This document shows, piece by piece, positions 1 to 44,006 of a DNA stretch of 64,000 nucleotides. The translations under genes and the position numbers were made by a program. This DNA is from a virus (lineage: Duplodnaviria; Caudoviricetes): positions 30,698-94,697 of the IMG/VR virus record IMGVR_UViG_3300021387_000189; one strand, written 5' to 3'. Numbering within the stretch: the stretch's first letter is position 1; each line of letters begins with the position of its first letter. The notes under the pieces were generated by a model. It had not been told where the DNA came from and ran no database searches. It saw only the letters and a list, made by a program, of their open reading frames with translations.

Positions 1-1297
1 CTTTGCTAATGACTCTCTTTCCTAGTCCTAAAGAAGTGACTGACTCATTCAATTCACTGAAAATGTCTTTTATAGTAAGATAATCATATTCTTCAACTTT
101 TCTAGATACAAATTCTAAGAAATCAACAATCTCTTCATGCCCAGCTCTTATTACAGACACTACAAAATCTGAATAGTCATCTATGATATTATTGATGAAG
201 TTGTCTTTAGCTTTTAGTGTCCCATGCAGGAAATTGGCCATCAATATAGAGCCTCTAAGAACTTCTAAATGTTTTGATGTGATGTTTAGAATAGTTCCAT
301 ACTCTCCAAGACAAAGCCATAGCTCATTCTTTCCTCTCACAAACACTCCACTTCCTTGGTCTTTGCCAGTGGATTGCATATGCTTGAAGATGAGGTCATT
401 CGTAGACTTCATAGAGTCAATCAAGTCTGCATAGTGAGCTCTTGAATAGCAGCAAATCAGATTCTTGACAACTTTCTTGTAATTTGCATAAGAAATCTCT
501 TCTATTGCGTCTCTCTTTTCATATTTCTTCTGTACTCTGCCTGCTAGTCCAATGCTTGACAATGTCTCATTGACCTTTGGATAGTTGTCAAGATGTCTGA
601 TTTCTTCCACTTTCCTGATAGCTGCACTAGCCACCATCCTAAGAGACAAGAACAGATTAGACACACTAAGCCTGTAGCAGTATCCTATTGGGTTTCCAGA
701 AATTCTAAAGTAGTCTATAGAGTCTTTGCTATTCACTATCAAGTGCTCTTGAGATGACAGTGCTTTGATCTCATCTTCACTATACATCTCTTCCATAAGA
801 GCAAGCTGACCAGCATAGTCTCCACCAAATATTCTTGAAGACATAGATCTCACTAATGTGTAGAAGAACCACTCACACTCGTTCTTCTCTAAGAAGTAAG
901 GAATATTGACATCTGCTTGTTCTTTGTGTTCAGTGTTAGGATACTTAAACCTTTCTGAATGTTTGTTGATTGCTTTCTGTAAAGCATCTTTGCTGAGAAC
1001 TAACACTGTGGCATACAGTTTGTCATTGTTCTTAGATGCTGTTGTCAGATTCCACTCAGGACATGTGAAAGCTATTCTTCTAGCAATAAAAGGTCCTTTC
1101 CAGTCATTGCTAGTCACTTTCCATCTTTTTGACTTGTCTATTGTCTTGAGAAGTCTCTTGATTTCTGTCTCACATTGTGAATCATCTATGAGGTCTAAGT
1201 CTTCAGTTCTGTTTCCTGCAGCTTTTTCTTCATATCGTTTAGATATTTTCTTAGAAAGACCAATCTTATATAGCTTGTATTCCTTGTCAAAGTCCAT
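1..1297 (-). CDS. Partial modular protein with three LGL tags (putative internal virion polyprotein); runs off the left edge, not in the ORF track
   Basis: Manual translation from ATG 1297 (alternative ATG 1336) is open to base 1: MDFDKEYKLYKIGLSKKISKRYEE...PKVNETLSSIGLAGRVQKKYEKRDAIEE...ELNESVTSLGLGKRVISK. ATAAATA on the minus strand at 1336-1342. Confidence 0.85.
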   Translation of the reverse strand, partial: MDFDKEYKLYKIGLSKKISKRYEEKAAGNRTEDLDLIDDSQCETEIKRLLKTIDKSKRWKVTSNDWKGPFIARRIAFTCPEWNLTTASKNNDKLYATVLVLSKDALQKAINKHSERFKYPNTEHKEQADVNIPYFLEKNECEWFFYTLVRSMSSRIFGGDYAGQLALMEEMYSEDEIKALSSQEHLIVNSKDSIDYFRISGNPIGYCYRLSVSNLFLSLRMVASAAIRKVEEIRHLDNYPKVNETLSSIGLAGRVQKKYEKRDAIEEISYANYKKVVKNLICCYSRAHYADLIDSMKSTNDLIFKHMQSTGKDQGSGVFVRGKNELWLCLGEYGTILNITSKHLEVLRGSILMANFLHGTLKAKDNFINNIIDDYSDFVVSVIRAGHEEIVDFLEFVSRKVEEYDYLTIKDIFSELNESVTSLGLGKRVISK

Positions 1298-1350
1298 CAG
1301 AATCAATAAATAAGCCAAATATTTGGGATTTTCCATATTTATCGAAGGAC

Positions 1351-1914
1351 ATGAATCTGAGATCCTCATACAAGAACAGGAACAAGCCAGACTTGAGAGA
1401 GAATGCTAAGTGGCAGCAAGGATACTTCTATCCAACTAACAAGGAGAAGTGCTTGTCACAAGTGAACATTTTCAGGTCAAGCTGGGAAGAGCACTTCATG
1501 AAGTGGTGTGACAGGAATCCAAACATAGTCCAGTGGGCTAGTGAGCCTATAGCTGTCAAGTACAGGAACCCGGTCTCTAACTTAGAGTATTGCAAGAAGA
1601 ACAACCTTGATCCTAGAGATCCAAGAAATTGGAAAGTATCTAACTACTACACTGACTTCTGGATTTCTATCAAAGGCAGGGATGGAAGTGTGAAGAAAGT
1701 GTTCATAGAGATCAAGCCTTACTCTCAGACACTTGCTCCTGAACCTATTGCTCCAAGTGCCCCTCTTAAAGAGCAGAAGGCGTACTGCAGAGCTGCTCAG
1801 ACATTCTTGATGAACAAAGCCAAGTGGGAAGCCGCAAAGAAATACTTCAATGAGCGAGGAGCGGAGTTCAGTGTGTTCACTGAGCGTACTCTAGAGAAGC
1901 TAGGATGTCTCTGA
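1351..1914 (+). CDS. Head completion nuclease, T4 gp4-like (TnsA N-terminal endonuclease fold)
   Basis: FRSSWE..FMKWCD.NP.IVQWASE, YYTDF, IEIKP..QT and NKAKWEAA motifs; ATAAATA at 1306-1312. Confidence 0.85.
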   Translation: MNLRSSYKNRNKPDLRENAKWQQGYFYPTNKEKCLSQVNIFRSSWEEHFMKWCDRNPNIVQWASEPIAVKYRNPVSNLEYCKKNNLDPRDPRNWKVSNYYTDFWISIKGRDGSVKKVFIEIKPYSQTLAPEPIAPSAPLKEQKAYCRAAQTFLMNKAKWEAAKKYFNERGAEFSVFTERTLEKLGCL

Positions 1915-1993
1915 AATCTACCCAAAATTTGACTCTTGAGATCTCATAATAAATATATCACAAAAGCAATTATATCTAGATACAAATAATCGC

Positions 1994-2470
1994 ATGAAGT
2001 CATTCAAAGAAGTCTATAATGCTAGCAAGATGCAAATGCTTGAAGCAAAGAAAACACAGATAGACAATGAGAAGGTCGCACTCTTAGAGGGTATAAAGAC
2101 CGAGTTGTGCATCACTTGCAAACTCAAGGAATTGCCAAAGCAGCGACAGGATCAGGTGCTCAACATGCTGTATGAGTTCTGGTCTCCAAAGAAAGGCATC
2201 AACAAAGCAGGAAAGGCATTCTTAGAAGAAGGCAGGATTGCTATTGACACTAAGTCTTCTGTAGCTAACATAAAGCTGTTTGCACAGAAGGAGGTCAAAG
2301 ACAACATCAATGAGTTTGCTAGGGCTTTTGTAAACAACAGAGGCAAGGAAATAGTACAACGCCTGCAAGAGAACATCCAGCACAGGTGCCAGAAGAAGAT
2401 CATGTTCAAGCCTTTGTTTGAGATGGTGTTCAAGATTGTGTCTGACAAGATTCAGAACGACAACCTGTAG
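1994..2470 (+). CDS. Late hypothetical protein, possible head/internal protein
   Basis: 158-aa ORF after ATAAATA (1949-1955); N-terminus MKSFKEVY...MLEA resembles T4 internal-protein leaders. Confidence 0.6.
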   Translation: MKSFKEVYNASKMQMLEAKKTQIDNEKVALLEGIKTELCITCKLKELPKQRQDQVLNMLYEFWSPKKGINKAGKAFLEEGRIAIDTKSSVANIKLFAQKEVKDNINEFARAFVNNRGKEIVQRLQENIQHRCQKKIMFKPLFEMVFKIVSDKIQNDNL

Positions 2471-5600: not shown

Positions 5601-8307
5601 CTACAAGAGTAGAGATCACACCAAAGACTCCTCCTGCACCTAGCATTGCAAACAAGACATTTGCAAAAGAATCCAAGTCTTTTTCGTTGACACTTTTTGC
5701 TTTCTTAGCAACATGTATAGTGTAGTCTACTATTCCTATCAGCCCTGCAAGGCATATAGTCAATATTGCTATGCCAGCTGTACTCCTAGTATCTAGAATA
5801 TACTTTTGTATAGCTGCAAGAGCTGTCAATATAGCAAGTTCTCCAACAAGGACTGTGATCAAGTTGCCAAACAATGGCTTCAGACCTCCATTCTCTTGGA
5901 TAGCTTGATTCAGATACTGAGACAGTTTCACTAGTGCTATGATGTTGAGCTCTAGGCCTATCATCACTGCAAGCAGCCACACTAAGTTCTTGATGGAGCT
6001 CTCTACTCCAGGAATCTTAGATATAGCAGCAAGTATTCCTACAACTAAAATCTCTCCTACAAGTATAGCAAGAAGCATGCCTACATGACTCCATCCTATA
6101 GCAGACATCTCTATGAGCTTAGCAATGCCAATGAACAATATCATGTTGATAGCAAGTCCAGCAATAGCTAAGTTGAGCATCATGATATTGTTGAGGTTCT
6201 CTCTAGAAATCAATCCTACTTTGTTAGCAACCCATATCAATCCAAGAACTGCTAGCCCAGCAGCAACAACAAGTCCTATAGCCAGATAGTGGTCTGCAGT
6301 TATATTCACTGCTAAGGTCCCAGCAATGGACACCATCAAGATGCTCAATCCAATAGCTGCTATAGCTACAGTGAATGCTTCTATAGCTTGAATAGTCTCT
6401 TTCTGTCCTCCAACCCTCAAAGCTAGTGACACACCAAGGATGACACCTGTCATTGCTAGAATCACAAGTCCAGTCTTAGTGAGCCACTCATTTGGTATAG
6501 TAGCAGCTATGAATGATGTCACATACACTAATGCCATAGAGAACATCAGATTCTTGAAGAGCAGACCTAAGTTCTCTGAGACCTTTATGCCATCTTCTAC
6601 AAGTCCTTTAGCCTTTCCAAGAAGAGCAGCAACACCTATTGCTGCAGCAATCACTATGCCATATATTGCAAGAGTAGTCCCAATGTCTCCCCATCCTACT
6701 TCTCTTATCACTAGAGCCGACAAGCTGAGTATGAACACCGCTCCACTTAGTGCAAGAAGCATGTTTGAGATCTCTTTAGCAGCATTGACTCCTTCAGGGT
6801 CAAACTTAGAAGCAAGCATAGACAAGCCAACTACACCTCCTACAAGAGAAGCTAAGAATACAAATGTAGCAAACACATCACCAGCACCTACACTCCTTAT
6901 GACTAGTGCAGCACCTGCAAGTATGACTATTCCAAGACACAGGTTCATTATTGTCTTGTTGACAAACTCTGTGAACTTAGTCAGATTCTTAGGATCTACA
7001 TTGTTAGTAGCTTCTACAATGCCTTTCAACAAGTACTTGATTCCAACAACAATAGCAGCCATCACTGCTAGTGTCTTCAGTGGCTCAAACTGAATCAAGA
7101 CTAGAGACATCAAGCCAATGCCCATTGCACAAAGAGTCAAGTCTTTCACAAGATGAGATATGCTTCCAATAGTCTTAGACAGCTGCTTGTTAGACATTGT
7201 CTCTTCAACTTCTGCAATGACATCTATGAATCCTTTGATGAATGAGGCAATCTTCCTTCCTCTCTTCTCTGAGTATACCAAGCTTGCTGCAAGCACTCCA
7301 GCCATGAACTTAGCACTTGCAAGTGTGTCTATCATCTTGATGACCGCTTGCACTCCTTGCACTGCATTGCTAGCATTAGGATTGTAGAAAGCTCTCTGCA
7401 CATCAGGATCTGTCATTCCAACAGCAATGTTCTTCAAGAAAGTCACCATTGCTTTGTCAATTCCCATCCTAAGAGCAACATGAGCAATGCCTATTCTCCT
7501 GAGGACTTTGTCTTGAGTGAAGAAGTTCAATAGCTGCAATACAGCATCTATGCCCCTTGTGTCTTGTATCTTCTTCTCTGGGTCAGACAAGAATGCATTC
7601 TTGATTTCAGGATCATTGAATATGCTAGATATAGTAATCAAGAACTTCTTCAAGTCATCAGCAAGTGTAGTTCCTCCAAACCCTAAGAAACCACCTTCTT
7701 TAGAGCTGAGTGCTTTCTGAGCAGCTTTCAGCCTCTTGTGCAAGTCAGGAGATGATACAAAGCTCAAGAACTTGTCAAATGGTGTGATGTCAAACTTGCT
7801 GAAGTCTCCTGCACCATTCATTGCATTACTAATCTCAGTAATGAAGTCTGTAATAGATTTTGCAGCAGTCTTGCCGAACTTGCTAAAGTCTCCTGCACCA
7901 TTCATTGCATTGCTGATTTCTGTGATGAAGTCTGCTACTGATCTAGCTGTAGTCTTGTCAAGCTTCTTCAGATTCTCAATGTTTGGTATTGAGGCAAGAA
8001 GAGAGATGAAGTTCACAAAGTTTGTGAATGAGCCTTGAGGTCCCATGACATCTAGATTCTCAAAGTCTCTAAGCTGGCCATTGAGCATCTCAAAAGAGTT
8101 AGCTACTTTAGCTATCTTGTTGTCAAGACTTGAGTCTTCAGATATAGCCTTGATGAGAGACAGCGAGTCACCAGAGACAACTATCTCAATCTTTGTCTCT
8201 TGTGAAGTCTCTCTTTCTCTTGCTTCTGTTGGCTTGTTGTTCTGGTAGATTGCTGCTAGAGCGCCATACAAAGCTTCCTGAAGCTCTCTCTTGAGTTGCT
8301 CATCCAT
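2611..8307 (-). CDS. Tape-measure-like protein (1898 aa)
   Basis: Very long Ala/Gly/Leu-rich helical protein with a central hydrophobic block, ~80-aa repeats (V.xFVDA.M.L.TG) and a coiled-coil C-terminus; ATAAATA at 8315-8321. Confidence 0.7.
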   Translation of the reverse strand: MDEQLKRELQEALYGALAAIYQNNKPTEARERETSQETKIEIVVSGDSLSLIKAISEDSSLDNKIAKVANSFEMLNGQLRDFENLDVMGPQGSFTNFVNFISLLASIPNIENLKKLDKTTARSVADFITEISNAMNGAGDFSKFGKTAAKSITDFITEISNAMNGAGDFSKFDITPFDKFLSFVSSPDLHKRLKAAQKALSSKEGGFLGFGGTTLADDLKKFLITISSIFNDPEIKNAFLSDPEKKIQDTRGIDAVLQLLNFFTQDKVLRRIGIAHVALRMGIDKAMVTFLKNIAVGMTDPDVQRAFYNPNASNAVQGVQAVIKMIDTLASAKFMAGVLAASLVYSEKRGRKIASFIKGFIDVIAEVEETMSNKQLSKTIGSISHLVKDLTLCAMGIGLMSLVLIQFEPLKTLAVMAAIVVGIKYLLKGIVEATNNVDPKNLTKFTEFVNKTIMNLCLGIVILAGAALVIRSVGAGDVFATFVFLASLVGGVVGLSMLASKFDPEGVNAAKEISNMLLALSGAVFILSLSALVIREVGWGDIGTTLAIYGIVIAAAIGVAALLGKAKGLVEDGIKVSENLGLLFKNLMFSMALVYVTSFIAATIPNEWLTKTGLVILAMTGVILGVSLALRVGGQKETIQAIEAFTVAIAAIGLSILMVSIAGTLAVNITADHYLAIGLVVAAGLAVLGLIWVANKVGLISRENLNNIMMLNLAIAGLAINMILFIGIAKLIEMSAIGWSHVGMLLAILVGEILVVGILAAISKIPGVESSIKNLVWLLAVMIGLELNIIALVKLSQYLNQAIQENGGLKPLFGNLITVLVGELAILTALAAIQKYILDTRSTAGIAILTICLAGLIGIVDYTIHVAKKAKSVNEKDLDSFANVLFAMLGAGGVFGVISTLVVTSGFGAAILGGMAALEIILAGLMGVINLFITTVSRWKKLKDEYGNLESAGGEIGGAFSGFLASLVKGWAPAGALLAIVMGIFTGPLLGLIWTIGEFVDIVEQVATMKFISGYDEKGKPIYERVDPGVFGLAAATVAGGFQMFIEGLAAGFRKLGGSGSWGGKFITGGLVAMTISYLSTSIGPIMQSVGTFVDAIMKLITGTYTMTGDDGEEIKKRVEPGDFTKAANAVSEAFGKFITELGKGADGLSYSAQASINSIAKSLSPVMDSVGKFVDAIMAMATGTYTTTDEEGNQRTEVVSEPRFIAAADAITGNFLRFLEALISGTEGMKYTQRKAIKSLSEAIVPIMDSVSKFVDAVMVLTTGTVSVGIEDSFKVTKQVSPDDFSAAAKSVVIWFNVFLRVLGESMAQLQPEQVETMESISKVMKPLMKGVSSFVDSILKLATGRYVDSYDKNGKPIYKTVSKEMYGDAASTLVSSLTTFIVGLRDGLNGIAPEAEEVLMHLSKGGLKDLMVGLSNFSKVISDNLFVIEGYDKNGKPIFMRKNGELVKTEDLYPVIAGTLATSITKFVTTLRDGLVSIEKDVPGVVKALKSILGVAKPVGEWGKMMKEFDVKTDYDSITLKVSSAIVYFASSFSSSEITSFATDEKKKELSRLKTNAAIILAAAKVINNFGSLDMTKAGQQEKEFLSNLATLMSATLPDAAAKYKSTIDQYTKDYGDLADRVHKVTRIITKASAQGYMALAALVTALNSLGPTSSYIGIDLLQTKLELLEVRMTKSLPIEEFANKISSIEGMTKQVVTSSGEIKNLDEIFRQATGEINQALYNGTSNFENTLAKLLADLTKLDTGIKASIKTVKKFGKDFEDTVDKIEKKLKKNEGERNRMLKDLTTHLDTIGKKLQVISSGLKAVNESSMDKVEQLGKIFMEMQQQQMQMLIDANIIKTEENPNPQPAQPAQPSTNNVNVSAQQTPPPTYFGEEIRFVVTDATRGELRGMLQRMV
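7793..7958 (-). repeat. 84-bp (28-aa) tandem duplication in the tape-measure-like gene
   Basis: DFITEISNAMNGAGDFSKF occurs twice, 84 nt apart. Confidence 0.9.
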
Positions 8308-8356
8308 TGTAGCATATTTATCAACAGATGAGAATAATCCGCTCCTAGAGACAATT

Positions 8357-8419
8357 GTTAAACTATGTTAAACTTTAAGACACAGTTGTCATGTCTTTGC
8401 AGATATTTTTGTATATTTG
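8357..8419 (+). promoter_or_regulatory. Host-type (Bacteroidota) promoter with upstream GTTAA-N5-GTTAA box
   Basis: GTTAA at 8357 and 8367; TATATTTG (TAnnTTTG) at 8412-8419. Confidence 0.7.
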
Positions 8420-8448
8420 CAGCAAATTCATAAATTAAAATATTGTAT

Positions 8449-8697
8449 ATGTATACAGAATTAAATTTTTTGTTTGTGTTAGCTATTCAAGTGATATGGG
8501 TTACTACAATGTTGTATGCTGTAGGTCACTACTTTGAAAGTCAAGAAAAGACATACTTCATAGTCAAAGGATACTTCAAGAAAGGCAGGATTCAAAAAAT
8601 CCTAATATGCATGTTAGCATCAGTGCTCATTGTGGCAGCTATCTATATAATTGTAGATCTCTGCATGTTGGTGCTGGTAATGAATGGCATCCAATAA
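8449..8697 (+). CDS. Small protein with two transmembrane segments
   Basis: Two hydrophobic segments; first gene after the host-type promoter. Confidence 0.6.
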   Translation: MYTELNFLFVLAIQVIWVTTMLYAVGHYFESQEKTYFIVKGYFKKGRIQKILICMLASVLIVAAIYIIVDLCMLVLVMNGIQ

Positions 8698-8764
8698 TGT
8701 TGTTGAGATGTTAAATGTTGTTAATATGCAAATTATACAATATCACTTCAAATATAACTAGCAT

Positions 8765-9780: not shown

Positions 9781-9810
9781 ATATACTAAATACACTCTCA
9801 ATAATACAAG

Positions 9811-11084: not shown

Positions 11085-11106
11085 ATCTATCCATGTCATA
11101 TGTATG

Positions 11107-11136: not shown

Positions 11137-11144
11137 TGTTGCTT

Positions 11145-16940: not shown

Positions 16941-16956
16941 CTAATTAAATCAAGAT

Positions 16957-17679
16957 ATGAATATGAAAATCAAAGACTTAGTGAATATCACAGGCATAGA
17001 GCAAAGGAGTATTGAGAGAGTTGCATTCTTCTTGCTTGGCATGCTGTTTGCTGTTGCTTCTTCTACTTACACTATGTGGCTAGGAGAGAAGTATAACTTA
17101 GTAGAGCACAAGATTGAGTACACTAACGTCATCAGCTATGTTCCTGCTAATTCTATCAGCAAGAGTGTCAAGACGCTCTCAGGAGCAAAAAGAAGTGTCT
17201 CAGACAAAGGGATAATGTTCATCAAGCAGAATGAAGGGATGCTCCGGCAAGCTGTATGGGACGTGAATGGTATCTCTGTAGGATGGGGTCACAAGATCAA
17301 CTCTAGTGATCCTAAGTGGCTCAGAGACTTCAAGATTGGTCAATGGATAAGTGCCTCATCAGCTAATGAGCTGCTTGCTAATGACATAGAGAATTTCTTG
17401 AATCCTAGCCTGAGATATGCTCTTAGAGACTTAGAGTCTAGTGGTGTTGACACTAAGAAGCTTTCTCAAGGCTTTGTAGATGGCATGGCCGACATGATAT
17501 ACAACTGTGGTCTCAATGGCATGATGACTACAGACTTCTACTATACACTGAAGAAAGGACATATAGACAAAGCGATAAGCTTAGTCCCTTCTACTAGAGT
17601 GTACTGTGATGGTCACAAGTCCAGAAGAGAGAAGACCTACCGGATGATGGTTGAGGCTCAAGCTTCTGCAGAGTCATAG
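16957..17679 (+). CDS. GH24 (T4-lysozyme-like) muramidase with an N-terminal hydrophobic anchor
   Basis: FIKQNEG-x7-D..GISVGWGH, YNCG and RR.K.Y; hydrophobic VAFFLLGMLFAVAS. Confidence 0.75.
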   Translation: MNMKIKDLVNITGIEQRSIERVAFFLLGMLFAVASSTYTMWLGEKYNLVEHKIEYTNVISYVPANSISKSVKTLSGAKRSVSDKGIMFIKQNEGMLRQAVWDVNGISVGWGHKINSSDPKWLRDFKIGQWISASSANELLANDIENFLNPSLRYALRDLESSGVDTKKLSQGFVDGMADMIYNCGLNGMMTTDFYYTLKKGHIDKAISLVPSTRVYCDGHKSRREKTYRMMVEAQASAES

Positions 17680-18860
17680 TCAAACTGGTCTTCACACAGC
17701 TCCTCAACAGGCCTGACTCTCAAGTCAGGCATATGCTTCTTGATGACAGCTATCAATCTGTCAACAGCATTGTCATATTCTTGCAAGATTTGATTGACTG
17801 TAGAAGTCTTTGATGTCTTTTCTATTTTATATGGATCAAAGGCTTCCATGAACTCATCTGGATAGTTTTTCATATAGAGAGCTAGGTTGCAAAGAGCAAA
17901 CATAGTACTATATGTCACATGTACTGAGTCAAATATTTCAACAGCGATTTTTTTGCTATCACCAAGATGCGCTCTATATGCTGGCTCATATGTCATAATA
18001 ACAAAATCCAACAGCATTCTTGATGTTGAGCCATCTTCATCTGAAGGAATGATTTCTATTTCTAAGAACACACTGTATGAGTTGTTTTCATCTAGAATAT
18101 CAGTATTAGCCCAATTGGTATACTTAGTGTAGCAGAATATTGGAAAATACCAAACCCAATGATTGTTAGGTCTAGTAGGAGAGACTTTCACCTTTCTTGC
18201 AAAGTACCTTTCATCAAAGACTCCGGGATCTTCATCAACATCAAACTCTTCTAAGTAATTCTCAGAAGCAAATGCTTTTAGAGCATTGTTAGCAGCTTCT
18301 ACAGTCATGAGTGAGATGTCTCCAATCTTTGACTTCTCTCTCTTTGCAAACTCTCGACTTACTTTCTTAGAAAGGCCAAGAGAAGTCTTAGTCTCTACAA
18401 GCTGCAGCTTTGGCTTCTTGTGTTCATTCTTCTTCTGCTTGTATAGCCAGTCAATCAGCTTGTCTTTGACTGAAGAGAACTTGAAGTCATAAGGGACTAG
18501 CAAGACTGGCATCTTGCTTGACCCATTTGTCTTGTAGAATCCAAACAAGTAGTTCTCATCTCCAATTATGCTCCAGTCAAGCCCAATGGCTTTAGCAGCA
18601 TTGCCTATGATAGTAGAAATCAAGTCTTTCAGCACATCATTCATCTGATCTCTGTCAAGACCTACTTGCTTAGTTATTTTCTTGAATGATGTGTCAAATG
18701 TAGAGTTGTACTTGAAGTTCTTCTCAAAGTCCCAATACTCTTTGAACTGCTTCAAGAAGTCGACTTTGTCATCCATAGTCTCTTTTGGGACTAAGTCTAG
18801 TTGGCTGTTCTGTGAAGTAGCCTCTGACAGAGGCTTGTCAAAGTCGAATCTGTCTCTCAT
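17658..18860 (-). CDS. Late two-module protein with an internal LGL tag
   Basis: LVETKTSLGLSKKVSREF at 18360-18401; ATAAATA at 18867-18873. Confidence 0.8.
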   Translation of the reverse strand: MRDRFDFDKPLSEATSQNSQLDLVPKETMDDKVDFLKQFKEYWDFEKNFKYNSTFDTSFKKITKQVGLDRDQMNDVLKDLISTIIGNAAKAIGLDWSIIGDENYLFGFYKTNGSSKMPVLLVPYDFKFSSVKDKLIDWLYKQKKNEHKKPKLQLVETKTSLGLSKKVSREFAKREKSKIGDISLMTVEAANNALKAFASENYLEEFDVDEDPGVFDERYFARKVKVSPTRPNNHWVWYFPIFCYTKYTNWANTDILDENNSYSVFLEIEIIPSDEDGSTSRMLLDFVIMTYEPAYRAHLGDSKKIAVEIFDSVHVTYSTMFALCNLALYMKNYPDEFMEAFDPYKIEKTSKTSTVNQILQEYDNAVDRLIAVIKKHMPDLRVRPVEELCEDQFDYDSAEA

Positions 18861-18924
18861 GATTGTTATTTATTGTATGCCAGACTTCTCATAAATATAT
18901 CTAGAAACAACACAACAGCAAAAA

Positions 18925-27258: not shown

Positions 27259-27309
27259 TAAGTATCAGAGCAATACAGAGCTATTGATAAATATGACAAA
27301 CACAACATT

Positions 27310-28071: not shown

Positions 28072-30372
28072 ATGAGAGTAGTAAAAGACAGAGACATCCA
28101 AAAGCTTGGATTGAGCAATAAGGTAAAGAGACAATACAAAGATCGAGAGATTATAAAAAACAATGTCCTCTTTAGTTTCTTTAACATATATGATTGCTAC
28201 AAGTATATCAAAGACAATATACCTGGATTTGCAGACTTGTTCTATTCTGAGAAATACGACTTTAACATATCAAGATCTATTAAGATTATACAGATAGTGT
28301 GTAGAGCAAACGCAAACATAAGCGTAGGAATAGTTCAAGACCCATGTGAAGAAAATGATAGACTCTACATATGCTCCGGCAACAATGAGAGACAGATGTT
28401 CAATTACATGTCTAAGCATTGTCCAGAGTCAGTCATAGAAATAGAAAATACAGGTATGATGTCTGCTGCTAAATACTACTATGGAAATACTGACGATGAT
28501 TGTCATAGCATGTCAAGTACTCTGCTAGATGTGACCATAAGCTATCTCAAGAAAGTTTCTTCTAGAAAATATCCAGAGTATCTACGGGTACCAGAGTCTA
28601 GGTTTAGTGGAGTACTAGAGTCGGCTAAGAAAGAGACAAAGCTGATTAAAGAGACTTGCAACCAGAAAGTGAATGCGCTAGAGTGGTTGAACGCCTTGAA
28701 GGAAAGCTCTGCTCTTGGCCTGTCAAAGAATATTAAGAAGAAGTTTGACAAAGTTGATGCAGTAGATAATGTGTTTGAGATCCAATTTGAAGATCCAGAA
28801 GTAGAACGCATATGTCATGATCATGATGTGTATACAATAGGAGATGCTATAAAAGTGTCTAGTATAAAAGAATGGTTCTCTAATAATGATAAGATAAAGT
28901 CATTCAATGAGCTGAAATACTTTAAAAGTCTCAGTGTCATAGAAGATTATGCTTTTTCTTTTTGTAGCTCTCTTCAGACAGTCACTATCCCTAATAGTGT
29001 TGTCAGCATAGGATACAGAGCTTTTGAACAATGCAAGTCTCTTCAATCAGTTATTATCCCTAATAGTGTCACTAGCATAGGACCTGCATCTTTTTTTGTG
29101 TGTGGGTCTCTTCAATCTGTCATTATACCAAATAGTGTCACTAGCATAAAAGAAGGTACTTTTTGGGGTTGTGGTACTCTTCAGTCAGTCACTATCCCAA
29201 ATAGTGTCACTAGCATAGAAAGAAGTGTTTTTAGCCTATGTAAGGCTCTTCAGACGGTTGTTATCCCGAATAGGGTCACTGGCATAGAAAAATATACTTT
29301 TTATAAGTGTGAGTCTCTTCAATCAGTCACTATCCCAAATATGGTCACTATCATTGGAGATAATGCATTTCTTGAATGCAAGTCACTTAAGACTATAGTC
29401 ATACCGGACAGTGTCATTAGCATAGGAGATAATGCATTTTCAAATTGTGATGATCTTAAAAAAGTGTACATGTCGTCAAGTTGCAAAGCATTTGACAGAA
29501 TTATGTCTGAAATTAGAAAAAACTCTAAAGATACCATCATCATTGATCCTAACACCCAAAAACTCTTGAAAAAAGCCGAATTAGTTGAGAGTGTTGTTAG
29601 AGAGAACAAAGAGCCAAATATCACTAACTCTCAAGGGCAGGATGTCCCTGAGCTTGGCAAGCACGCAGAGAATGTCTACTTGCCTGATTGCCCATTCATG
29701 ATAGGCAAAGATCAAGTAGATTGGTTTGAGTATTTCCAAAGAGAGAAAGAGAAGCACACAATCAAAGATGTTGATGACTTTGTGCAGTCAGCTAAGAAAG
29801 AGACAAAGCTGATTGAAGAGTCTTGCAACCAGAAAGTGAATGCACTAGAGTGGTTTGTTGCTTTGAAGGAAAGCTCTGCTCTTGGACTATCAAAGAAAGT
29901 CAATAAGACTTATAATCTAACACATGACAAGAATATAACTCTCAAGCAGCTCTGTGACTTGGTCAGAGCAAAAATCTATACAGCAGTTGGGTATCCTCCA
30001 GACAAAAACGTGAAAGAAGTCCCTGCCATGCTCAGGCTGTACGATTATGGCTCCAGCTTGATTGTAGCTGACATGAGAGTAGACAAAGAATACGAATTCA
30101 ATTGTGCTAAAGAGAGATTCAATGAGAGGATAGAGATTGAACAGAGAAGGCTTGATGGATATATGGCTGACCTAGCCAAGAAAACAAAAAGGAAGGAAGC
30201 CACAGACTTACTGTTGGAGTGTATATCAAACACTAAGGCTTACATAGCTGGGCTGATTGCAGGAAGAGATATAATAGAGTCGCTTGGTTGGTATGTTTTC
30301 ATGAATGCTATGCAGAATACAGAAGCTGAGATAGCTAGAGCTAAAGAATCTAAGAAAGGACAAAGCTTATGA
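28072..30372 (+). CDS. Modular protein: tag-domain / tag-BspA-type LRR / tag-helical domain
   Basis: About eight 23-aa LQSV.IPNSVTSIG..AF..C repeats; LGL tags at 28102, 28666 and 29833. Confidence 0.9.
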   Translation: MRVVKDRDIQKLGLSNKVKRQYKDREIIKNNVLFSFFNIYDCYKYIKDNIPGFADLFYSEKYDFNISRSIKIIQIVCRANANISVGIVQDPCEENDRLYICSGNNERQMFNYMSKHCPESVIEIENTGMMSAAKYYYGNTDDDCHSMSSTLLDVTISYLKKVSSRKYPEYLRVPESRFSGVLESAKKETKLIKETCNQKVNALEWLNALKESSALGLSKNIKKKFDKVDAVDNVFEIQFEDPEVERICHDHDVYTIGDAIKVSSIKEWFSNNDKIKSFNELKYFKSLSVIEDYAFSFCSSLQTVTIPNSVVSIGYRAFEQCKSLQSVIIPNSVTSIGPASFFVCGSLQSVIIPNSVTSIKEGTFWGCGTLQSVTIPNSVTSIERSVFSLCKALQTVVIPNRVTGIEKYTFYKCESLQSVTIPNMVTIIGDNAFLECKSLKTIVIPDSVISIGDNAFSNCDDLKKVYMSSSCKAFDRIMSEIRKNSKDTIIIDPNTQKLLKKAELVESVVRENKEPNITNSQGQDVPELGKHAENVYLPDCPFMIGKDQVDWFEYFQREKEKHTIKDVDDFVQSAKKETKLIEESCNQKVNALEWFVALKESSALGLSKKVNKTYNLTHDKNITLKQLCDLVRAKIYTAVGYPPDKNVKEVPAMLRLYDYGSSLIVADMRVDKEYEFNCAKERFNERIEIEQRRLDGYMADLAKKTKRKEATDLLLECISNTKAYIAGLIAGRDIIESLGWYVFMNAMQNTEAEIARAKESKKGQSL
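28620..29897 (+). repeat. ~110-bp direct repeat (28620-28730 and 29787-29897) encoding the tag and flanking the LRR module
   Basis: GCTAAGAAAGAGACAAAGCTGATT...TTGAAGGAAAGCTCTGCTCTTGG is near-identical in both copies. Confidence 0.9.
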
Positions 30373-31184
30373 AAGAGTCATGTGTAATCAAGAGAGTGAA
30401 TGCTTTAGAGTGGTACATGGCCTTGCAAGAGAACTCAAGTCTTGGTCTTGGTGATAAAGTCAAGAGGAAGTTTGACAAAGTTGATGCAATAGACAATCTG
30501 ACGCAGATCCAATTTGAAGATCCAGAAGTAGAGCGTATATGCCATAAACATGGTGTATATACAATAGGAGATGCTATAAAAGTGTCTAGTATAAAAGAAT
30601 GGTTCAATAAAAATAGGAAGATTCAGGCGTTCAACGAATTCAAATACTTTACAGGATTGAAAGACATAAAAAAATCTACTTTTGAAGGATGCACTAATCT
30701 TCAATCAGTCATTATCCCAAATGGTGTCACTAGCTTAAGAAATTTTGCTTTTATGTATTGTGCTTCTCTCAAATCAATCTCTATTCCAAATAGTGTCACT
30801 AGCATAGAAAACTGGACTTTTAGTCATTGTGAGTCTCTTCAATCAATCCGTATCCCAGATAGTGTTAATAAGATAGGAGGTCGTGCTTTTAGTAGTTGTT
30901 TTAATCTTCAATCAATCACTATTCCAAGTGGTGTCAGCACCATGGTCTCATCTATTTTTATGAATTGCACTTCTCTTCAATCAGTAGTTATCCCAGATAG
31001 TGTCGCCATCATAGGAGATAATATATTTTCAAATTGTAAATTACTCAAGGACATATACATCTCTAAGAACTGTCCTGTATATAATCAAATAAGAAAACAA
31101 TATCCAGATATTCAGCTTATAGAACCTAAAGTGAATGAGTCATCTAGCTTAGGTCTCAGCAGCAAAGTCAAGAAAAAACTATGA
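30369..31184 (+). CDS. BspA-type LRR protein with N- and C-terminal LGL tags
   Basis: IQFEDPEVERICH cap and about six 23-aa LRRs; ends VNESSSLGLSSKVKKKL. Confidence 0.9.
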   Translation: MKESCVIKRVNALEWYMALQENSSLGLGDKVKRKFDKVDAIDNLTQIQFEDPEVERICHKHGVYTIGDAIKVSSIKEWFNKNRKIQAFNEFKYFTGLKDIKKSTFEGCTNLQSVIIPNGVTSLRNFAFMYCASLKSISIPNSVTSIENWTFSHCESLQSIRIPDSVNKIGGRAFSSCFNLQSITIPSGVSTMVSSIFMNCTSLQSVVIPDSVAIIGDNIFSNCKLLKDIYISKNCPVYNQIRKQYPDIQLIEPKVNESSSLGLSSKVKKKL

Positions 31185-31626
31185 GGACACTCATGGACAA
31201 GGCATAGATATAAAGCAGCTAGCAGATTTCATCAGGCAAAAAGTGTATGTTGCTGCAGGATATTCACCGGATGAAGACCCAGAAAAAGTAGACTATGACC
31301 TCCGAGTGTATGCAACAGGCAACAGCTTGGTGACAGATGGCATAAGAATCTGTGATGAAGAGAGCTTCTATTATGCTATTGACTTTATCAACTCTGACAT
31401 AGAAAGAGAAAAAAGCAACATAAGCATCTTCAAGAACATCTACCTCCCTTTATATAAAGAGCGTGGAGAGAAGACAGTCGAAGCTTCAGCACTAGAAGCT
31501 ATAGAAAAATCTAGTCGCCAAGTATCAGGGTTAACTGCTGCAAAGAATGAGCTAGAGACCATAGGATGGTTTGGGCTCTTGAAAGCAATGACAAACTCAA
31601 GAGAGCCTTTAATCCTTTGTACCTGA
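31177..31626 (+). CDS. Out-of-frame (+1) continuation of 30369..31184; homolog of the last module of 28072..30372
   Basis: The +1 frame reads NYEDTHGQGIDIKQLADFIRQKVYVAAGY, aligning with TYNLTHDKNITLKQLCDLVRAKIYTAVGY. Confidence 0.75.
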   Translation, partial: NYEDTHGQGIDIKQLADFIRQKVYVAAGYSPDEDPEKVDYDLRVYATGNSLVTDGIRICDEESFYYAIDFINSDIEREKSNISIFKNIYLPLYKERGEKTVEASALEAIEKSSRQVSGLTAAKNELETIGWFGLLKAMTNSREPLILCT

Positions 31627-36522: not shown

Positions 36523-37800
36523 CTATTCAGTGGTGTCTTCATCAGAGAGTCCTAAGTCCTTCTCTAGCTCATCAATGTCTTCAAGAGAGCTTTGATCAGG
36601 AAGCTTGAACAATGGACCAATTATGTTGTCATTGATGTAGTGCAAGAACTCATCAGTGAAGCATACTGGAGAGTAGAACTCTTGAAGAGTGACTTGTCTT
36701 CCAAGATGCTTGCATACAATTCCTACACCTTTCACCATTGTCTTCTTAGGCCATGCATACCTGTTCTCTCCATTGAAGTCAAACTTGATGCACTCTAGTT
36801 GCTCATTAGGCTTCAGCTTCTGGAACTCTTCTTCTGTCAAGCACTTTCCTTGCATTATCCCAGCATTATCCCAGTTGAGGTACTCTTCAAGTCCTACATA
36901 TGGATTTGGCTTCTTGAATGCAGGAATCTGGAACTTGCACTTCATGATTCTGCAGAATCTTGACTTGTCTGGCCATGCTGTCACAACAACACCATTCTTC
37001 TTGATGTTTGCTGCTCCAATGTTCTTCTCTGCATTCTTGTTGTTCTCTTTGTCATCAAGCTTTGCAACAGAAGCAAGATTCAAAGTGATAGAGCCACTAA
37101 AGCGCACTCCACTTCCACCTACTTGCGCTGTGGTAGAAATAAAACTCCCGATCGATGCAATGAGGTGGTTTGTGCATATCCAGGGTATCTGAAGCTTTGC
37201 AATTGGAATAGTGTTGACTCTGAACATTGCTCGTATGTCTTTAGCTTTTGTGAAGTCTGCTACTGACTTTCCTTCTAGAGCATCATCCCTCTCTTTCTCA
37301 GACGTCAATTGTCCTATAGAGTCAAGCACAAGTACAATCTTAGGTCTCTCCCCACCATTGTCTACTTGTTCCTGTATCTCTTTGCACATGTTTGCAATGA
37401 AAGTGGTAGTCTCTTTGATTGTATTCACCTGCTTGATGATGAAATTGTCAGGATCACATCCAAGTCTTGTCACAAAGTCTTTGTCTATTGAATTCTCAGA
37501 GTCAAGATACACAGGAGTATATCCCTTCTTCTGTGCTTCTCTACAGAAAGACACTGCTAAAAAACTCTTCCCAGTTTGGGATTCTCCAGTAAGCATCAAT
37601 ATTCTGCCAGATGGAGCTCCTTTGAACAAGTCTCCAGACAAGCAAGCATTGAGAATATAGTTACCTGATGGAATCCAGTCCTCAATTTTGCTGTATACAC
37701 TCTTTGACAGGATCTCTACACTGTCATCTACTTTCTGCAAAGTCTTGAATATGTCTATCTTCTTTCCTTCTCCTGATGTCTCTGTTGGTTTCTTTGCCAT
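36523..37800 (-). CDS. uvsX: RecA-like recombinase
   Basis: SGNYILNACLSG, GESQTGKS, YLDSENS, VLDSIG, CTNH, GGSG. Confidence 0.9.
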   Translation of the reverse strand: MAKKPTETSGEGKKIDIFKTLQKVDDSVEILSKSVYSKIEDWIPSGNYILNACLSGDLFKGAPSGRILMLTGESQTGKSFLAVSFCREAQKKGYTPVYLDSENSIDKDFVTRLGCDPDNFIIKQVNTIKETTTFIANMCKEIQEQVDNGGERPKIVLVLDSIGQLTSEKERDDALEGKSVADFTKAKDIRAMFRVNTIPIAKLQIPWICTNHLIASIGSFISTTAQVGGSGVRFSGSITLNLASVAKLDDKENNKNAEKNIGAANIKKNGVVVTAWPDKSRFCRIMKCKFQIPAFKKPNPYVGLEEYLNWDNAGIMQGKCLTEEEFQKLKPNEQLECIKFDFNGENRYAWPKKTMVKGVGIVCKHLGRQVTLQEFYSPVCFTDEFLHYINDNIIGPLFKLPDQSSLEDIDELEKDLGLSDEDTTE

Positions 37801-37894: not shown

Positions 37895-39247
37895 TCAGAC
37901 TATTGTAGAGTTGAGGACTGCACTCAAGTCTCCAATCCCAGGCGCCGTCTGTGGTGCTGCAGGCTGAGTTGTAGAGTTCAGTATAGAGTCAACGCTGCTC
38001 ATGTCTATGCCATTGATAGCTGCTGTTGGAGCTGCAGGTGGAGCTTGCATTCCAGGCATCTCCGTGCCAACACTAAGTCCTGGGACACCTACACCAAGGT
38101 TAGCAGTTGGGTCTATTGATGGAGTTGATGGATTCTGTGGTACCATGTTCTCAAGTCCCATCGCTGGCATTGCAGGAGCTGGTGCTGCAGGCTGAGACAA
38201 GATAGATCCAAGACTAGGTGTTGCTGGTGCTGCAGGCTGTGCTGGTGCTGCAGGCATCTGCATTCCACTCATTGGAGATGTTGGCATCTGTGGCTGCTGA
38301 GCATAGATCTGTGTTGGATCAACAACGGTTGGAGTAATTGATGGCTGTGCAGCAGCCATAGGTTGCTGGACTGACATTGCTCCTGCCATAGATGCTTGCT
38401 GCAGTGCAGTGATAGGAGCACCATTGAGGATCTTGCCATGAAGCAGAATCATCTCATCAACATACTTCTTAGTCTCTTCATCCCAAGGATGATACATGTA
38501 CTCACTGAGCTTTGGTGCATTCTCAGTCAAGAAGTTAGAGATAAGCTGACGTCCTTGCTCTGTCTGTGCCATCTCAAGAGTTGCAGGCACAACTTGCTTC
38601 TGGCCAGGAACCTGTGGGTTGTCAACCACAAGTCTCATGCAGTTTGCAGGATACTGTATGTCAAAGAAGAATGACTGGTCTAAGTTGTTGAAGTTCTGCT
38701 GCTTGACTGCTACGACTTTGAAAGGACGTCCTTTGAAAAGATCAAATGGCTGACGTGGTGCTTGTCCTTGCATGACTGGAGTCTTCTCCTGGCAAATCTT
38801 CTCATAGATCTTGATTCCATACTTCCAAATAAGGATCTTGTTAGTCAGAGATGGGTCTTGTGGACACTCAATGACTTGTACAAGAGAATAGAAGTTCTGG
38901 TGTCTCTTGAAGTTGTCTTGCAATGCTGCAGCTTGGGCATTCTTTGAGTTCCTCAAAGCGAAGAACATCTGTGTGAGTGGGTCAGGCTCGCCAACTGTAG
39001 ATGGACTGTCAATTGTCTTACCTTGGTCTGTAAGAGGATTCTTGAGGAAAACTGTCCACTTCTGGATGATTGACAAGTCTTTTGGATTCTCTGGATTAGG
39101 AAGGAAACGAATGACTGCTTCGAACTTTCCTGAATCACCACCTTTCTTATAAGAGGGCCTAAACTCTTTGATTGCTTCTACTGGTGTCTCAGTGTTGTTG
39201 AGGTTAAGTCCCTCAGGATTGAACAATGCGGAAATTAAGTCTGCCAT
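37895..39247 (-). CDS. Single-stranded DNA-binding protein, T4 gp32-like, with a long P/A/Q/M-rich tail
   Basis: AVIRFLP, DSPSTVGEPDP, IWKYG.KIYEKI, PFDLFKG.PF; located between uvsX and primase. Confidence 0.8.
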   Translation of the reverse strand: MADLISALFNPEGLNLNNTETPVEAIKEFRPSYKKGGDSGKFEAVIRFLPNPENPKDLSIIQKWTVFLKNPLTDQGKTIDSPSTVGEPDPLTQMFFALRNSKNAQAAALQDNFKRHQNFYSLVQVIECPQDPSLTNKILIWKYGIKIYEKICQEKTPVMQGQAPRQPFDLFKGRPFKVVAVKQQNFNNLDQSFFFDIQYPANCMRLVVDNPQVPGQKQVVPATLEMAQTEQGRQLISNFLTENAPKLSEYMYHPWDEETKKYVDEMILLHGKILNGAPITALQQASMAGAMSVQQPMAAAQPSITPTVVDPTQIYAQQPQMPTSPMSGMQMPAAPAQPAAPATPSLGSILSQPAAPAPAMPAMGLENMVPQNPSTPSIDPTANLGVGVPGLSVGTEMPGMQAPPAAPTAAINGIDMSSVDSILNSTTQPAAPQTAPGIGDLSAVLNSTIV

Positions 39248-42604: not shown

Positions 42605-42673
42605 TTATCAAGTTGTTTCTTCTTTTCTTTGATGTATATATCATTGTCTTTGCAAAAAATGCTCTCAGGATGT

Positions 42674-43231
42674 CTAGAGCAAAGACACAAGCCACAAGAA
42701 TCCACTAGCAATCTGGCTTCTGAACACCCAACACACACACCCAATCAATGCAGTGTAGAACAACAGTATCCAGTAGAATCTTGGATTGTTGACAGTCATT
42801 GGTGTGAAAGTGAATGTGATTCCATAGTATCCAGACATGTTGCCTTCTTCATCTGCAAAGTCAATGAACTCTGTCAGCAAGTACTCTCCCCACAAGAGCT
42901 CATCAAACAAGTAGTTGTGCTCAGTCTGAGACACATCAATCAAGTACAGATTCTTCTGTCGGTCATTCAAGCCAATGACTCTGTTCCTGTCCATGATCTT
43001 CTGTGTGTACACTACGTTGCCAAGCTTGTTGACTTTGAGGCCAAGCTTGTTGAACTTAGAGTTTGGGTCTTTCTTAAGATTTAGGATTTCTCTCCTGAAC
43101 TTGAGGAAATTCTTTATGTCATAGAATGCAGACACTAGTGCAACATAGAGCCAAGCAAAGTTGCTTATGAGCCATACTCTGTTGTACCATTTGCTCTTGT
43201 CTTGTGTCTGTATGTAAGTCTTAGTTGCCAT
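42674..43231 (-). CDS. Protein with two transmembrane segments
   Basis: N- and C-terminal hydrophobic helices; AAAC-N16-TATATAA upstream (43268-43294). Confidence 0.7.
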   Translation of the reverse strand: MATKTYIQTQDKSKWYNRVWLISNFAWLYVALVSAFYDIKNFLKFRREILNLKKDPNSKFNKLGLKVNKLGNVVYTQKIMDRNRVIGLNDRQKNLYLIDVSQTEHNYLFDELLWGEYLLTEFIDFADEEGNMSGYYGITFTFTPMTVNNPRFYWILLFYTALIGCVCWVFRSQIASGFLWLVSLL

Positions 43232-43292
43232 ATGGTATATATCAAGTCCTAAAATATAGTCTCAATATTATATAGCAAGTGTTAAATAATGT

Positions 43293-44006
43293 TTAAAGCT
43301 CTTCTCTTTTCTTGATGTTGAACAACACATCTCCTACAAGCTTCTTGATATTGCCTGGCTTGAGATTGTTCAATGCATTTGTTCCTCCTTCTTCTGCTAC
43401 TTTGTTAATAGTAGACTCCCAAATCTCTTGATAGTGATTAGCAAATAGCTTAAATGCTTCCTTGACTTGATGCAACGCTCTTTCTGTAGGTTTGAACAAT
43501 AAGTTTGTACTTCCCTTTGGTACAGTTGGATCTATTTCAACAAGATCATTGAAGAATACATCAAAGAATCTCCACTTTCGATTAATATACCAAACTCTAG
43601 TATTTACATATCCTAGTCTATTCTCTAAAGATACAAAAATTCCAATGCCATCTTTTAAGTTGAGATTAGAGTCAATGGAACTAGTGTGTCTAATATAGAA
43701 GCACAAGTTACTCCATAATTCATCATTCTTTGCTTGTTCGGACAAATTTAGTCCTCTAAACGTTCTAGATTTGCAGTAATCAAGCCCTTTAGCCGATGGC
43801 AAGCCTGCTATCGCTTCTTCTGTAGATTTGTCAAGCTCTTTAAAGAAGTCCTTCATATCCATAAGATCATCTGATATAGCATCGTTGAAGTCTCGCTCAT
43901 GTTCTTCTTTGTTCTTTTCATAATTTTTAGACACTCTCTTGCTAAGTCCAAGAGCCATTTCAGACTCTTTGATGTTGTTGAACCACTCTAATGCATTGAC
44001 TTTCAT
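43293..44006 (-). CDS. Late single-module protein beginning with the full tag
   Basis: MKVNALEWFNNIKESEMALGLSKRVSKNYEK; ATAAATA at 44033-44039. Confidence 0.85.
   Translation of the reverse strand: MKVNALEWFNNIKESEMALGLSKRVSKNYEKNKEEHERDFNDAISDDLMDMKDFFKELDKSTEEAIAGLPSAKGLDYCKSRTFRGLNLSEQAKNDELWSNLCFYIRHTSSIDSNLNLKDGIGIFVSLENRLGYVNTRVWYINRKWRFFDVFFNDLVEIDPTVPKGSTNLLFKPTERALHQVKEAFKLFANHYQEIWESTINKVAEEGGTNALNNLKPGNIKKLVGDVLFNIKKREEL

Follow-up and report, generated by a model that had tools for sequence, protein, structure and literature searches.

The 64,000-nt window analysed here is part of a longer virus contig, and five of its dispersed ORFs (A–E) share a short peptide tag, which raises the question of what a single motif is doing in otherwise dissimilar proteins. 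The preliminary description counted ten copies, all of which are found where it placed them; the five ORFs contain eleven, the additional one being in the part of ORF A outside the window, 485 nt beyond the left end. A tag HMM scores these eleven copies at 15.8–21.3 bits, the next six-frame match in the 94.7-kb contig being at −3.1 bits, and a regular expression for the tag has nine matches in the contig, compared with 0–3 (mostly 0) in 20 contig shuffles. The conserved tag peptide, or handle, is 25 residues long and bipolar in charge, a basic part with the consensus L-G-L-[NSA]-K-[KR]-[VA]-x-K-K-[FYH] being followed by an acidic part like D-x-D-A-[VI]-D-N. It was new to the preliminary reader, as fits its absence from Pfam and PHROGs, where searches matched neither the tag nor the cargo outside the LRR modules; nor did we find any description of tag-punctuated cargo polyproteins in the literature.

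Tagged ORFs of the window

The features are listed by window position, a slash marking the bond after the Glu of each predicted site.

1..1297, minus strand: ORF A, four-module tag polyprotein, running past the left window end to contig position 29358; probable start Met25 at 1297
1..73, minus strand: tag A3, L-N-E/S site; crosses the window edge
488..595, minus strand: tag A2, V-N-E/T site
1199..1297, minus strand: tag A1, N-terminal variant without Glu site, with an (F)-D-F-D-K-like motif before it
1336..1342, minus strand: promoter-like A-T-A-A-A-T-A upstream of ORF A (Met25)
17658..18860, minus strand: ORF B, two modules; N-terminus with F-D-F-D-K and an L-S-E/A site, without L-G-L
18315..18422, minus strand: tag B, L-V-E/T site
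18867..18873, minus strand: promoter-like motif upstream of ORF B
27287..27293, plus strand: promoter-like motif at the head of the operon of a 253-aa ORF, C and D
28072..30372, plus strand: ORF C, with three modules, the middle one BspA-type LRR_5 and the outer two unknown
28072..28170, plus strand: tag C1, bare N-terminal variant
28666..28779, plus strand: tag C2, extended variant, L-K-E/S site
29833..29946, plus strand: tag C3, extended variant, L-K-E/S site
30369..31184, plus strand: ORF D, extended tag, LRR_5 module, then first half of another tag
30393..30506, plus strand: tag D1, extended variant, L-Q-E/N site
31107..31181, plus strand: tag D2, V-N-E/S site, shortened by a frameshift
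31173..31178, plus strand: run of A in the lysine stretch of tag D2, with one extra base in the window strain
31243..31626, plus strand: continuation of the D gene, read in the +1 frame and homologous to ORF C module 3
43293..44006, minus strand: ORF E, single module after an extended N-terminal tag
43887..44003, minus strand: tag E, 14-residue N-terminal helix ending I-K-E/S, then the L-G-L handle
44033..44039, minus strand: promoter-like motif upstream of ORF E

In the full contig ORF A is 902 aa long, or 878 aa from Met25, and has four tags; a start at Met25 is backed by the orthologue P0009, which starts there. If ORF A does start at this residue (window 1297), tag A1 counts as N-terminal, and [LIV]-x-E is then absent, as had been reported, from two copies only, both of them N-terminal (A1 and C1). 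The 14-residue helix before the Glu belongs to the extended variant only (ORFs D and E, modules C2 and C3). It had also been claimed that ATAAATA lies upstream of all five genes, and we find A-T-A-A-A-T-A 13–45 nt upstream of A (Met25), B and E, as well as before the 253-aa ORF that heads the C–D operon. The operon that ORF A heads includes genes for baseplate (Phage_base_V) and cell-wall hydrolase (lysozyme) proteins.

The domains behind the tags are mostly unrelated, in agreement with the preliminary description, the exceptions being the LRR modules, and ORF C module 3 with the ORF that follows D. Tag D2 has the appearance of a tag without cargo, but this is ruled out, as a 1-nt frameshift in the A-run splits the D gene; goat-gut strains do not have the extra base that breaks the frame in the window strain. 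A single 275-nt contig in RNA run X14 is identical to part of ORF C, which is too little to claim expression.

Candidate cargo modules and spread of the tag

The expectation that this genome and its relatives would contain many further tagged genes preceded by the promoter-like motif is borne out by the tag HMM. The profile recovers 75 protein clusters from metagenomes, none with more than 11 tags. There are 280 tag copies in proteins that are otherwise dissimilar, and the 264 modules, with about 190 residues to a module, fall into 77 unrelated families. Orthologues differ by whole modules with boundaries at tags, and whole modules turn over quickly between strains; in a bovine-gut contig, for example, one tag is joined to another and the LRR module is skipped. 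Four loci in GTDB genomes match a degenerate tag pattern by chance, none of them scoring with the tag HMM, and because this pattern covers only about one in eight tags the GTDB search is not evidence of absence.

The Pfam domains present in the cargo are LRR_5 (in 22 of 54 proteins), related LRR models, Fib_succ_major, Lcl_C and DUF7891, and the recognised cargo domains are binding modules only (LRR_5, Fib_succ_major, Lcl_C); no enzyme domain, and in particular no peptidase family, was found with Pfam in the cargo of 70 of the 75 profile matches. In ORFs C and D the BspA-type LRR_5 (PF13306) scores 207 bits, above the gathering score, and covers cargo only and not the tag. Module bodies are mostly acidic, with a median pI of 5.5. 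The AF2 model of ORF D has a confident solenoid for the LRR body (pLDDT >94) and values below 55 for both tags, so the tag lies outside the fold of the cargo. The other models are less informative: that of ORF A (AF2, 878 aa, 6-row alignment) has a mean pLDDT of 42.9 and is too poor for fold searches, the ESM Atlas has a weak model for ORF E (pLDDT 0.52, with TM of about 0.4 or less to unrelated families), and it gave no model and no usable match for ORF B.

The Glu site and the head genes

The contig of the window and a second contig overlap at their ends by exactly 107 nt, and one 3577-aa ORF is continuous across the joint; this overlap and this ORF constitute the link between the window and the protease gene, which lies on the overlapping contig. 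The merged sequence of 241 kb contains 34 tags in 13 ORFs, which occupy about 10% of its coding capacity, and encodes a T4-type capsid, a portal and a gp21-family (S77) prohead protease. The protease matches Peptidase_S77 at 52.3 bits (cut-off 27) and T4 gp21 by BLASTP at 8.9e-12, and two of its short motifs, one with a His and one with a Ser-Ser pair, align with T4 gp21. A 5-tag ORF ends 70 nt before the protease gene, an 8-tag ORF sits between the protease and the Gp23-type capsid gene, and two small tagged ORFs are directly 3′ of the Portal_T4 gene, the place of core genes 67 and 68 in T4; the same layout is present on a related 177-kb contig. The promoter-like motif stands at −13 to −45 of the protease and both head polyproteins, as it does for ORFs A, B and E, and some polyprotein genes are located among replication genes, not head genes.

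The homology of the capsid protein with T4 gp23 is defined by a Pfam model and a MAFFT alignment; phmmer comparison with PDB sequences gave no match. The capsid protein is 57% identical to that of Lak-A1, B and C, and we regard the phage, which has about 400 kb and comes from the ruminant gut, as related to the Lak megaphages. TAG recoding goes with the Lak lineage, but here TAG terminates 58 of 224 ORFs and long ORFs are open under the standard code; nor does the tag profile find a tag in Lak-A1, which suggests a Lak relative and not Lak proper. Neither the window (megablast) nor the 8-tag ORF (tblastn) has a match in the phage records searched.

Across the 75 protein clusters, 214 of the 220 internal tags have a Glu 2–8 residues before L-G-L, usually in the form (V, L, I or M)-N-E/S, with V/L/I/M at P3 in 90%, Asn at P2 in 52% and Ser at P1′ in 73%. 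The site is missing in 17 of 57 N-terminal tags, several of which start only 3–5 residues after the initiator Met. The motif [VLIM]-N-E-[SA] is observed 100 times in the tagged proteins compared with 7.8 ± 2.5 times in shuffles, and 88 of these sites are directly before a tag; a second conserved Glu site after the handle was searched for and none was found. T4 gp21 cleaves after L/I-x-E (PMC9026906). In the capsid protein, an L-N-E/A at residue 66–69 is aligned with a stretch of T4 gp23 ending in L-T-E/A, and the tag Glu site has the same motif as this site, at which the phage's capsid protein is predicted to be matured. The protease ORF has five sites of this motif and the adjoining acidic 305-aa scaffold-like protein two; there are nine sites in 1747 residues of the head proteins, by rough estimate some thirty times the composition-based expectation.

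A proposed cargo system and its alternatives

Taking these sequence features together, we think it fairly likely that the tag ORFs encode cargo polyproteins that are processed by the prohead protease and packaged in the head, each module keeping its L-G-L handle. A cassette would consist of a prohead-protease site ([VLIM]-x-E), a short variable spacer, the conserved handle and a cargo module. The polyproteins would be expressed along with the head genes, from A-T-A-A-A-T-A promoters, and would become part of the prohead core, and the gp21-family S77 protease would cut after the Glu, so that each module would stay in the head with the handle as its new N-terminus and could later be delivered into the host; the tags are also the places where cassettes are gained, lost and duplicated. 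The preliminary description had likewise read these ORFs as polyproteins packaged in the head and cut into units, and this is supported in part: the phage does encode a gp21-family S77 protease and the tag Glu site does match the predicted capsid maturation site, while cleavage, packaging, injection, an effector role and a DNA-binding or ejection role of the handle stand as proposals. Counting against the cargo reading are the adhesin-type domains, the acidic bodies, the genes located among replication genes, and the tagless Lak-A1.

The modules might instead be processed and packaged as structural filler rather than as effectors (a scaffold, a core or a phiKZ-type inner body), with the handle serving as a self-assembly or core-binding element. 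The position of the genes, as T4 core genes 67, 68 and 22, would suit such a role, as would their share of the coding capacity, the bipolar handle and the acidic scaffold-like protein that adjoins, and there are cleaved inner-body paralogue families in phiKZ-like phages; we nonetheless consider it unlikely, since 77 unrelated families among 264 modules and fast whole-module turnover are closer to T-even internal proteins than to a conserved scaffold, and LRR binder modules are not known as scaffold parts. The T-even internal proteins are diverse and are described as defence proteins with only the targeting sequence conserved (PMC3012670). Rather improbable, too, is display of the modules on the virion exterior, as adhesins on head decorations or fibres, with the tag as a docking peptide and another protease, or no cutting, involved. 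BspA-type LRR_5, Fib_succ_major and Lcl_C are known mainly from cell-surface proteins, and the ORF A operon carries baseplate and cell-wall hydrolase genes, but the site before the tags is the predicted capsid maturation motif and is missing exactly where nothing needs removal, the protease gene is flanked by two polyprotein genes, and a prohead protease works inside the prohead, as established for T4.

Tag-to-tag deletion and module duplications do occur, as they might if the repeat were a DNA-level element (a recombination site, an internal promoter or another signal) and the peptide its by-product. This is hardly credible, because in 31 tags the invariant L, G, L and V are each encoded by 3–6 synonymous codons, Gly by all four, so that the tag is conserved as a peptide and not as DNA; its 280 copies, moreover, lie in otherwise dissimilar proteins. 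Very improbable, too, is a reading of the tag as a small independent unit that binds DNA or forms a helix-turn-helix, with the proteins as regulators. The succession of a helix, L-G-L-S and a basic helix is superficially helix-turn-helix-like, and AF2 draws two short helices, but these have pLDDT <55 and no packing, Pfam gives no match, and a protein can have up to 11 copies of the tag, every one tied to a Glu site, with head genes adjacent.

Judged by sequence comparison, the tag ORFs are probably a version of the internal-protein system of phage T4 in which the proteins are strung together as polyproteins. The T4 internal proteins (IPI, IPII, IPIII and Alt) and the present ones have in common a gp21-family S77 protease and a [hydrophobic]-x-Glu site, cargo that is diverse and unrelated but for a short conserved peptide, late promoters similar to T-A-T-A-A-A-T-A, and genes that are near the head cluster or scattered. 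However, T4 cargo proteins are encoded by separate genes and are basic, whereas a single ORF here can join as many as 11 cassettes and the cargo bodies are acidic, and the T4 targeting sequence has no sequence similarity to the tag. In T4 the conserved 10–20 residues form a propeptide that precedes the cut and is discarded, while here the conserved block of 25 residues follows the Glu and is predicted to be retained on the cargo; because of this difference the T4 analogy leaves the conservation of the handle unexplained.

Candidate roles for the handle include core or shell docking, DNA contact and an ejection signal. We suggest, tentatively and as a possibility short of probable, that the retained handle is a universal address label that docks freed modules to one common head receptor (the shell wall, the DNA or the portal channel) and governs their exit with the DNA, giving a plug-in delivery of fast-evolving binders, mostly hypervariable LRR modules, against host proteins of defence or surface assembly; fusion behind site and handle would then be enough for any protein to be packaged and delivered. 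The cargo-loading peptides of encapsulins are also short conserved peptides on otherwise unrelated cargo, likewise in a setting where the shell has the HK97 fold; this is a lead only, a likeness with no sequence relationship to the tag.

If the cargo reading is correct, about one-tenth of the coding capacity of a megaphage would be head cargo loaded by a simple and portable rule, a protease site and a retained 25-residue handle, and the T4 internal-protein paradigm would extend to polyproteins of up to 11 cassettes. There would also be a sequence signature for head cargo in uncultured huge phages, and BspA-type LRR modules would emerge as binders delivered by phages and not as adhesins on a surface. 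As a candidate packaging or ejection signal the handle can be tested, and bears on how huge phages take over Prevotella-like hosts.

Two other known systems bear comparison. The inner-body and ejection proteins of phiKZ, 201phi2-1 and SPN3US include many head-internal proteins of giant phages that a gp21-like protease cuts after Glu; they form paralogue families, and their propeptides are believed to direct them to the prohead. The cleavage motif in those phages is S/A/G-x-E or A-x-E, in contrast to the V/L/I/M at P3 that the present sites share with T4, and they have long removed propeptides, with no polyprotein strings reported, in contrast to the predicted retained handle; no Pfam family of the PF12699 type was found here. 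Polyvalent proteins resemble the present ORFs in being large and multi-domain, in their late-gene context, and in being proposed as packaged, injected and processed effectors. Their building blocks are identifiable enzyme domains (MuF, ART, peptidases, nucleases), and they are believed to process themselves (Iyer et al. 2017, PMC5512222), whereas domains of the MuF, ART and MPTase type were not found here and a single uniform linker, in agreement with the site of the prohead protease, forms the junctions.

Tagged genes and the phage genome

The ten copies of an L-G-L peptide and the five open reading frames (ORFs) reported for the window in the preliminary description all lie exactly where it placed them. 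The five tagged genes are dispersed:

ORF A, 1..1297, minus strand
ORF B, 17658..18860, minus strand
ORF C, 28072..30372, plus strand
ORF D, 30369..31184, plus strand
ORF E, 43293..44006, minus strand

The window covers 30698-94697 of an IMG/VR contig (G000, 94.7 kb). On the full contig ORF A is 902 aa long, probably starts at Met25, and carries a fourth tag that falls just outside the window. A profile HMM of the tag gives the 11 copies 15.8-21.3 bits; the best six-frame match beyond them in G000 scores -3.1 bits, and shuffled sequence yields essentially zero regular-expression matches to the tag. Each invariant residue is encoded by 3-6 synonymous codons, so it is the peptide, not the DNA, that is under selection.

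A search with a degenerate version of the extended tag brought up a second IMG/VR contig (IMGVR_UViG_3300021387_000931; G001, 146.7 kb), which has 19 or more additional tags. Over exactly 107 nt the 5' end of G001 (1-107) is identical to the 3' end of G000 (window 63894-64000), and in the merged sequence of 241,345 bp a 3577-aa ORF (merged 85758-96491, minus strand) runs unbroken over the joint; the two contigs are therefore taken as one phage genome. ORF E is present letter-identical in other assemblies, where its contigs measure 399 kb and 410 kb (ENA ERZ12302816 NODE_6), which puts the full genome at about 400 kb. The capsid protein shares 57% identity with its counterparts in the Prevotella Lak megaphages. 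The phage uses all three stop codons, so its genetic code is standard, and the public sequencing runs that contain the phage are gut samples of sheep, goat and bovine origin. We also note RecA/UvsX-like and gp32-like genes at window 36523-37800 and 37895-39247, which fit T4-type replication and recombination, and giant ORFs of 3577, 1898, 1643 and 1829 aa in the merged genome that match no Pfam or PHROG family.

The tag family and its predicted cut site

The merged sequence contains 34 strong tags in 13 ORFs, which account for 7,244 of 74,562 encoded residues, or about 10% of the coding capacity. A profile built from 31 tags, searched against 1.84 billion representative proteins, matched 75 at E <= 0.001 (for 40, E <= 1e-10), with 280 tag copies between them and up to 11 in one protein; all 20 of the 75 that we looked up are unnamed metagenomic proteins, each on one to four contigs. 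The family consensus, L-G-L-[NSA]-K-[KR]-[VA]-x-K-K-[FHY] followed by x-[DE]-x-D-A-[VI]-D-N-[IV], extends beyond the motif first described, with a basic first half and an acidic second half. Neither Pfam nor PHROGs has a family for the tag itself.

The cargo modules between tags have a median length of 188 residues, and 264 of them fall into 77 similarity groups. For most, module-against-module BLAST finds the tag as the sole common part, the exceptions being leucine-rich repeat (LRR) modules and a few paralogues that lie in tandem. The only Pfam families in the tagged proteins are LRR_5 and related LRR models, Fib_succ_major, Lcl_C and one DUF. In the AlphaFold2 model of ORF D the LRR solenoid is confident (pLDDT >94 at residues 45-255), and both tag regions have pLDDT <55 and are drawn as two short unpacked helices, which argues that the tag is not part of the cargo fold; as modelled, it is a flexible appendage outside it.

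T4 gp21 cleaves after L/I-x-E (PMC9026906). When the tags are anchored on the nearest upstream glutamate, a Glu lies 2-8 residues before L-G-L in 214 of 220 internal copies, with V, L, I or M at P3 (90%), Asn at P2 (52%) and Ser at P1' (73%); the spacer from Glu to L-G-L varies in length. The site is absent from 17 of 57 N-terminal tags, including several that start only 3-5 residues past the initiator Met. The 75 proteins contain the four-residue form [VLIM]-N-E-[SA] 100 times, compared with 7.8 +/- 2.5 in shuffles; 88 of these occurrences stand directly before a tag, and inside cargo the motif is no more frequent than expected by chance.

An F-D-F-D-K-like motif lies just before the tag at the N-terminus of ORF A (window 1297-1369) and of many relatives. 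The N-terminus of ORF B (window 18800-18860) has the same motif, then L-S-E↓A (the arrow follows the Glu of the site), without the L-G-L handle. This motif may serve as a second N-terminal signal, one that could be removed.

The head protease, tagged genes beside head genes and a proposed model for cargo packaging

G001 encodes a Peptidase_S77 protein that aligns to T4 gp21 (E = 8.9e-12), with two short motifs, which contain a His and a Ser-Ser pair, matching up. It and its neighbor are:

G001 76945-79335: S77 protease ORF, 796 aa, the protease being the first ~165 residues
G001 79361-80278: acidic 305-aa protein (pI 4.3), next gene after the protease ORF, largely disordered, two cut-motif sites

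Copies of the four-residue putative cut motif away from tags concentrate in head proteins, with five in the protease ORF, two in the acidic protein and two in the capsid protein. One of the capsid sites (residues 66-69) aligns with the stretch of T4 gp23 that ends in L-T-E↓A, where gp23 is cut and loses its N-terminal domain. Because of this alignment and the clustering in head proteins, the motif before every internal tag is very probably the phage's own maturation site, as judged from sequence. Beyond the protease part, the 796-aa ORF is acidic and of low complexity, then apparently folded, with x-N-E↓S/T sites scattered throughout; this long C-terminal extension looks scaffold-like, and both it and the acidic protein are candidate scaffold or core proteins.

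Several tagged genes adjoin head genes. A 5-tag ORF ends 70 nt before the start of the protease gene, an 8-tag ORF sits between the protease gene and the Gp23-type capsid gene, and two small ORFs with an extended N-terminal tag come directly after the Portal_T4 gene, the position occupied in T4 by core genes 67 and 68. On a related contig of 177 kb the arrangement is the same, with portal, capsid gene, a 7-tag ORF and S77 protease in succession. Tagged genes also occur outside head clusters: the LRR polyproteins of one relative lie among replication genes, and ORF A is the first gene of an operon that also encodes lysozymes and the OB domain of a baseplate spike. On the same strand as ORF A and downstream of it (G000 13859-28992, minus strand, left of the window) are Phage_lysozyme, Peptidase_M15 with a tail lysozyme, Phage_base_V (the spike OB domain), as well as long coiled-coil proteins, a set suggestive of a module for the tail, the baseplate or penetration of the cell wall.

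The best-supported reading of these sequence patterns is a T4-type internal-protein system in polyprotein form, in which cargo would be incorporated into the prohead and the S77 protease would cleave at every cassette boundary. The handle lies after the predicted cut and would stay on each module; a conserved peptide that would be left on every module is the main difference from T4. Each internal tag is strongly conserved, so each copy likely functions by itself, during cutting or afterwards. The main rival, that the modules are adhesins on the virion surface, draws on the recognizable cargo domains, which are adhesin-like, but both the logic of the protease sites and the positions of the genes speak against it. 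For the prohead polyprotein reading the published literature offers precedents in T4, phiKZ/SPN3US, P1 and polyvalent proteins, and we found no account there of the tag or of such polyproteins.

A promoter-like motif and module turnover

The heptamer A-T-A-A-A-T-A, as a rule with A or G in front of it, is present in 69 copies in the 241 kb. Of these, 42 are sense-oriented and no more than 120 nt ahead of the start of one of 41 genes, for the most part at -33 to -45. Examples in the window are:

1336-1342
18867-18873
27287-27293
44033-44039

Among the genes behind it are the protease gene, those of both head polyproteins, large virion-like ORFs, and ORFs A (counted from Met25), B and E. By sequence and placement the motif behaves as a putative phage promoter, and it resembles the T4 late promoter minus the first T of that motif.

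Orthologous polyproteins vary by whole modules, at tag boundaries. For example, module 1 is duplicated in tandem in the 8-tag ORF but not in its 7-tag orthologue, and two other pairs differ likewise. In a relative's contig from a bovine-gut sequencing run, window position 30464 is joined to 31174, so that the two tags of ORF D meet and the 709-nt LRR module is absent; this is either a tag-to-tag module deletion or another cassette order in that relative.

The terminal tag of ORF D could be taken for a cargo-less orphan, but a one-base difference in an A-run (window 31173-31178), in the lysine part of that tag, splits the gene from its last module in the window's strain. The +1 frame beyond the run completes the tag and continues into a module (window 31243-31626) homologous to ORF C module 3. 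The same break recurs in three further assemblies, all from near-identical strains, and goat-gut strains have one A fewer and a single intact ORF D frame. The lysine richness of the tags gives them homopolymer runs, and such runs could switch downstream modules on or off. We also note that in a relative (ENA ERZ919330 scaffold_429, 7185-14653) a 917-aa LRR polyprotein ORF stops shortly past a tag and the next ORF carries on with further cassettes, the gene break lying beside a tag and the neighbors being replication genes (DnaB_C, Metallophos).
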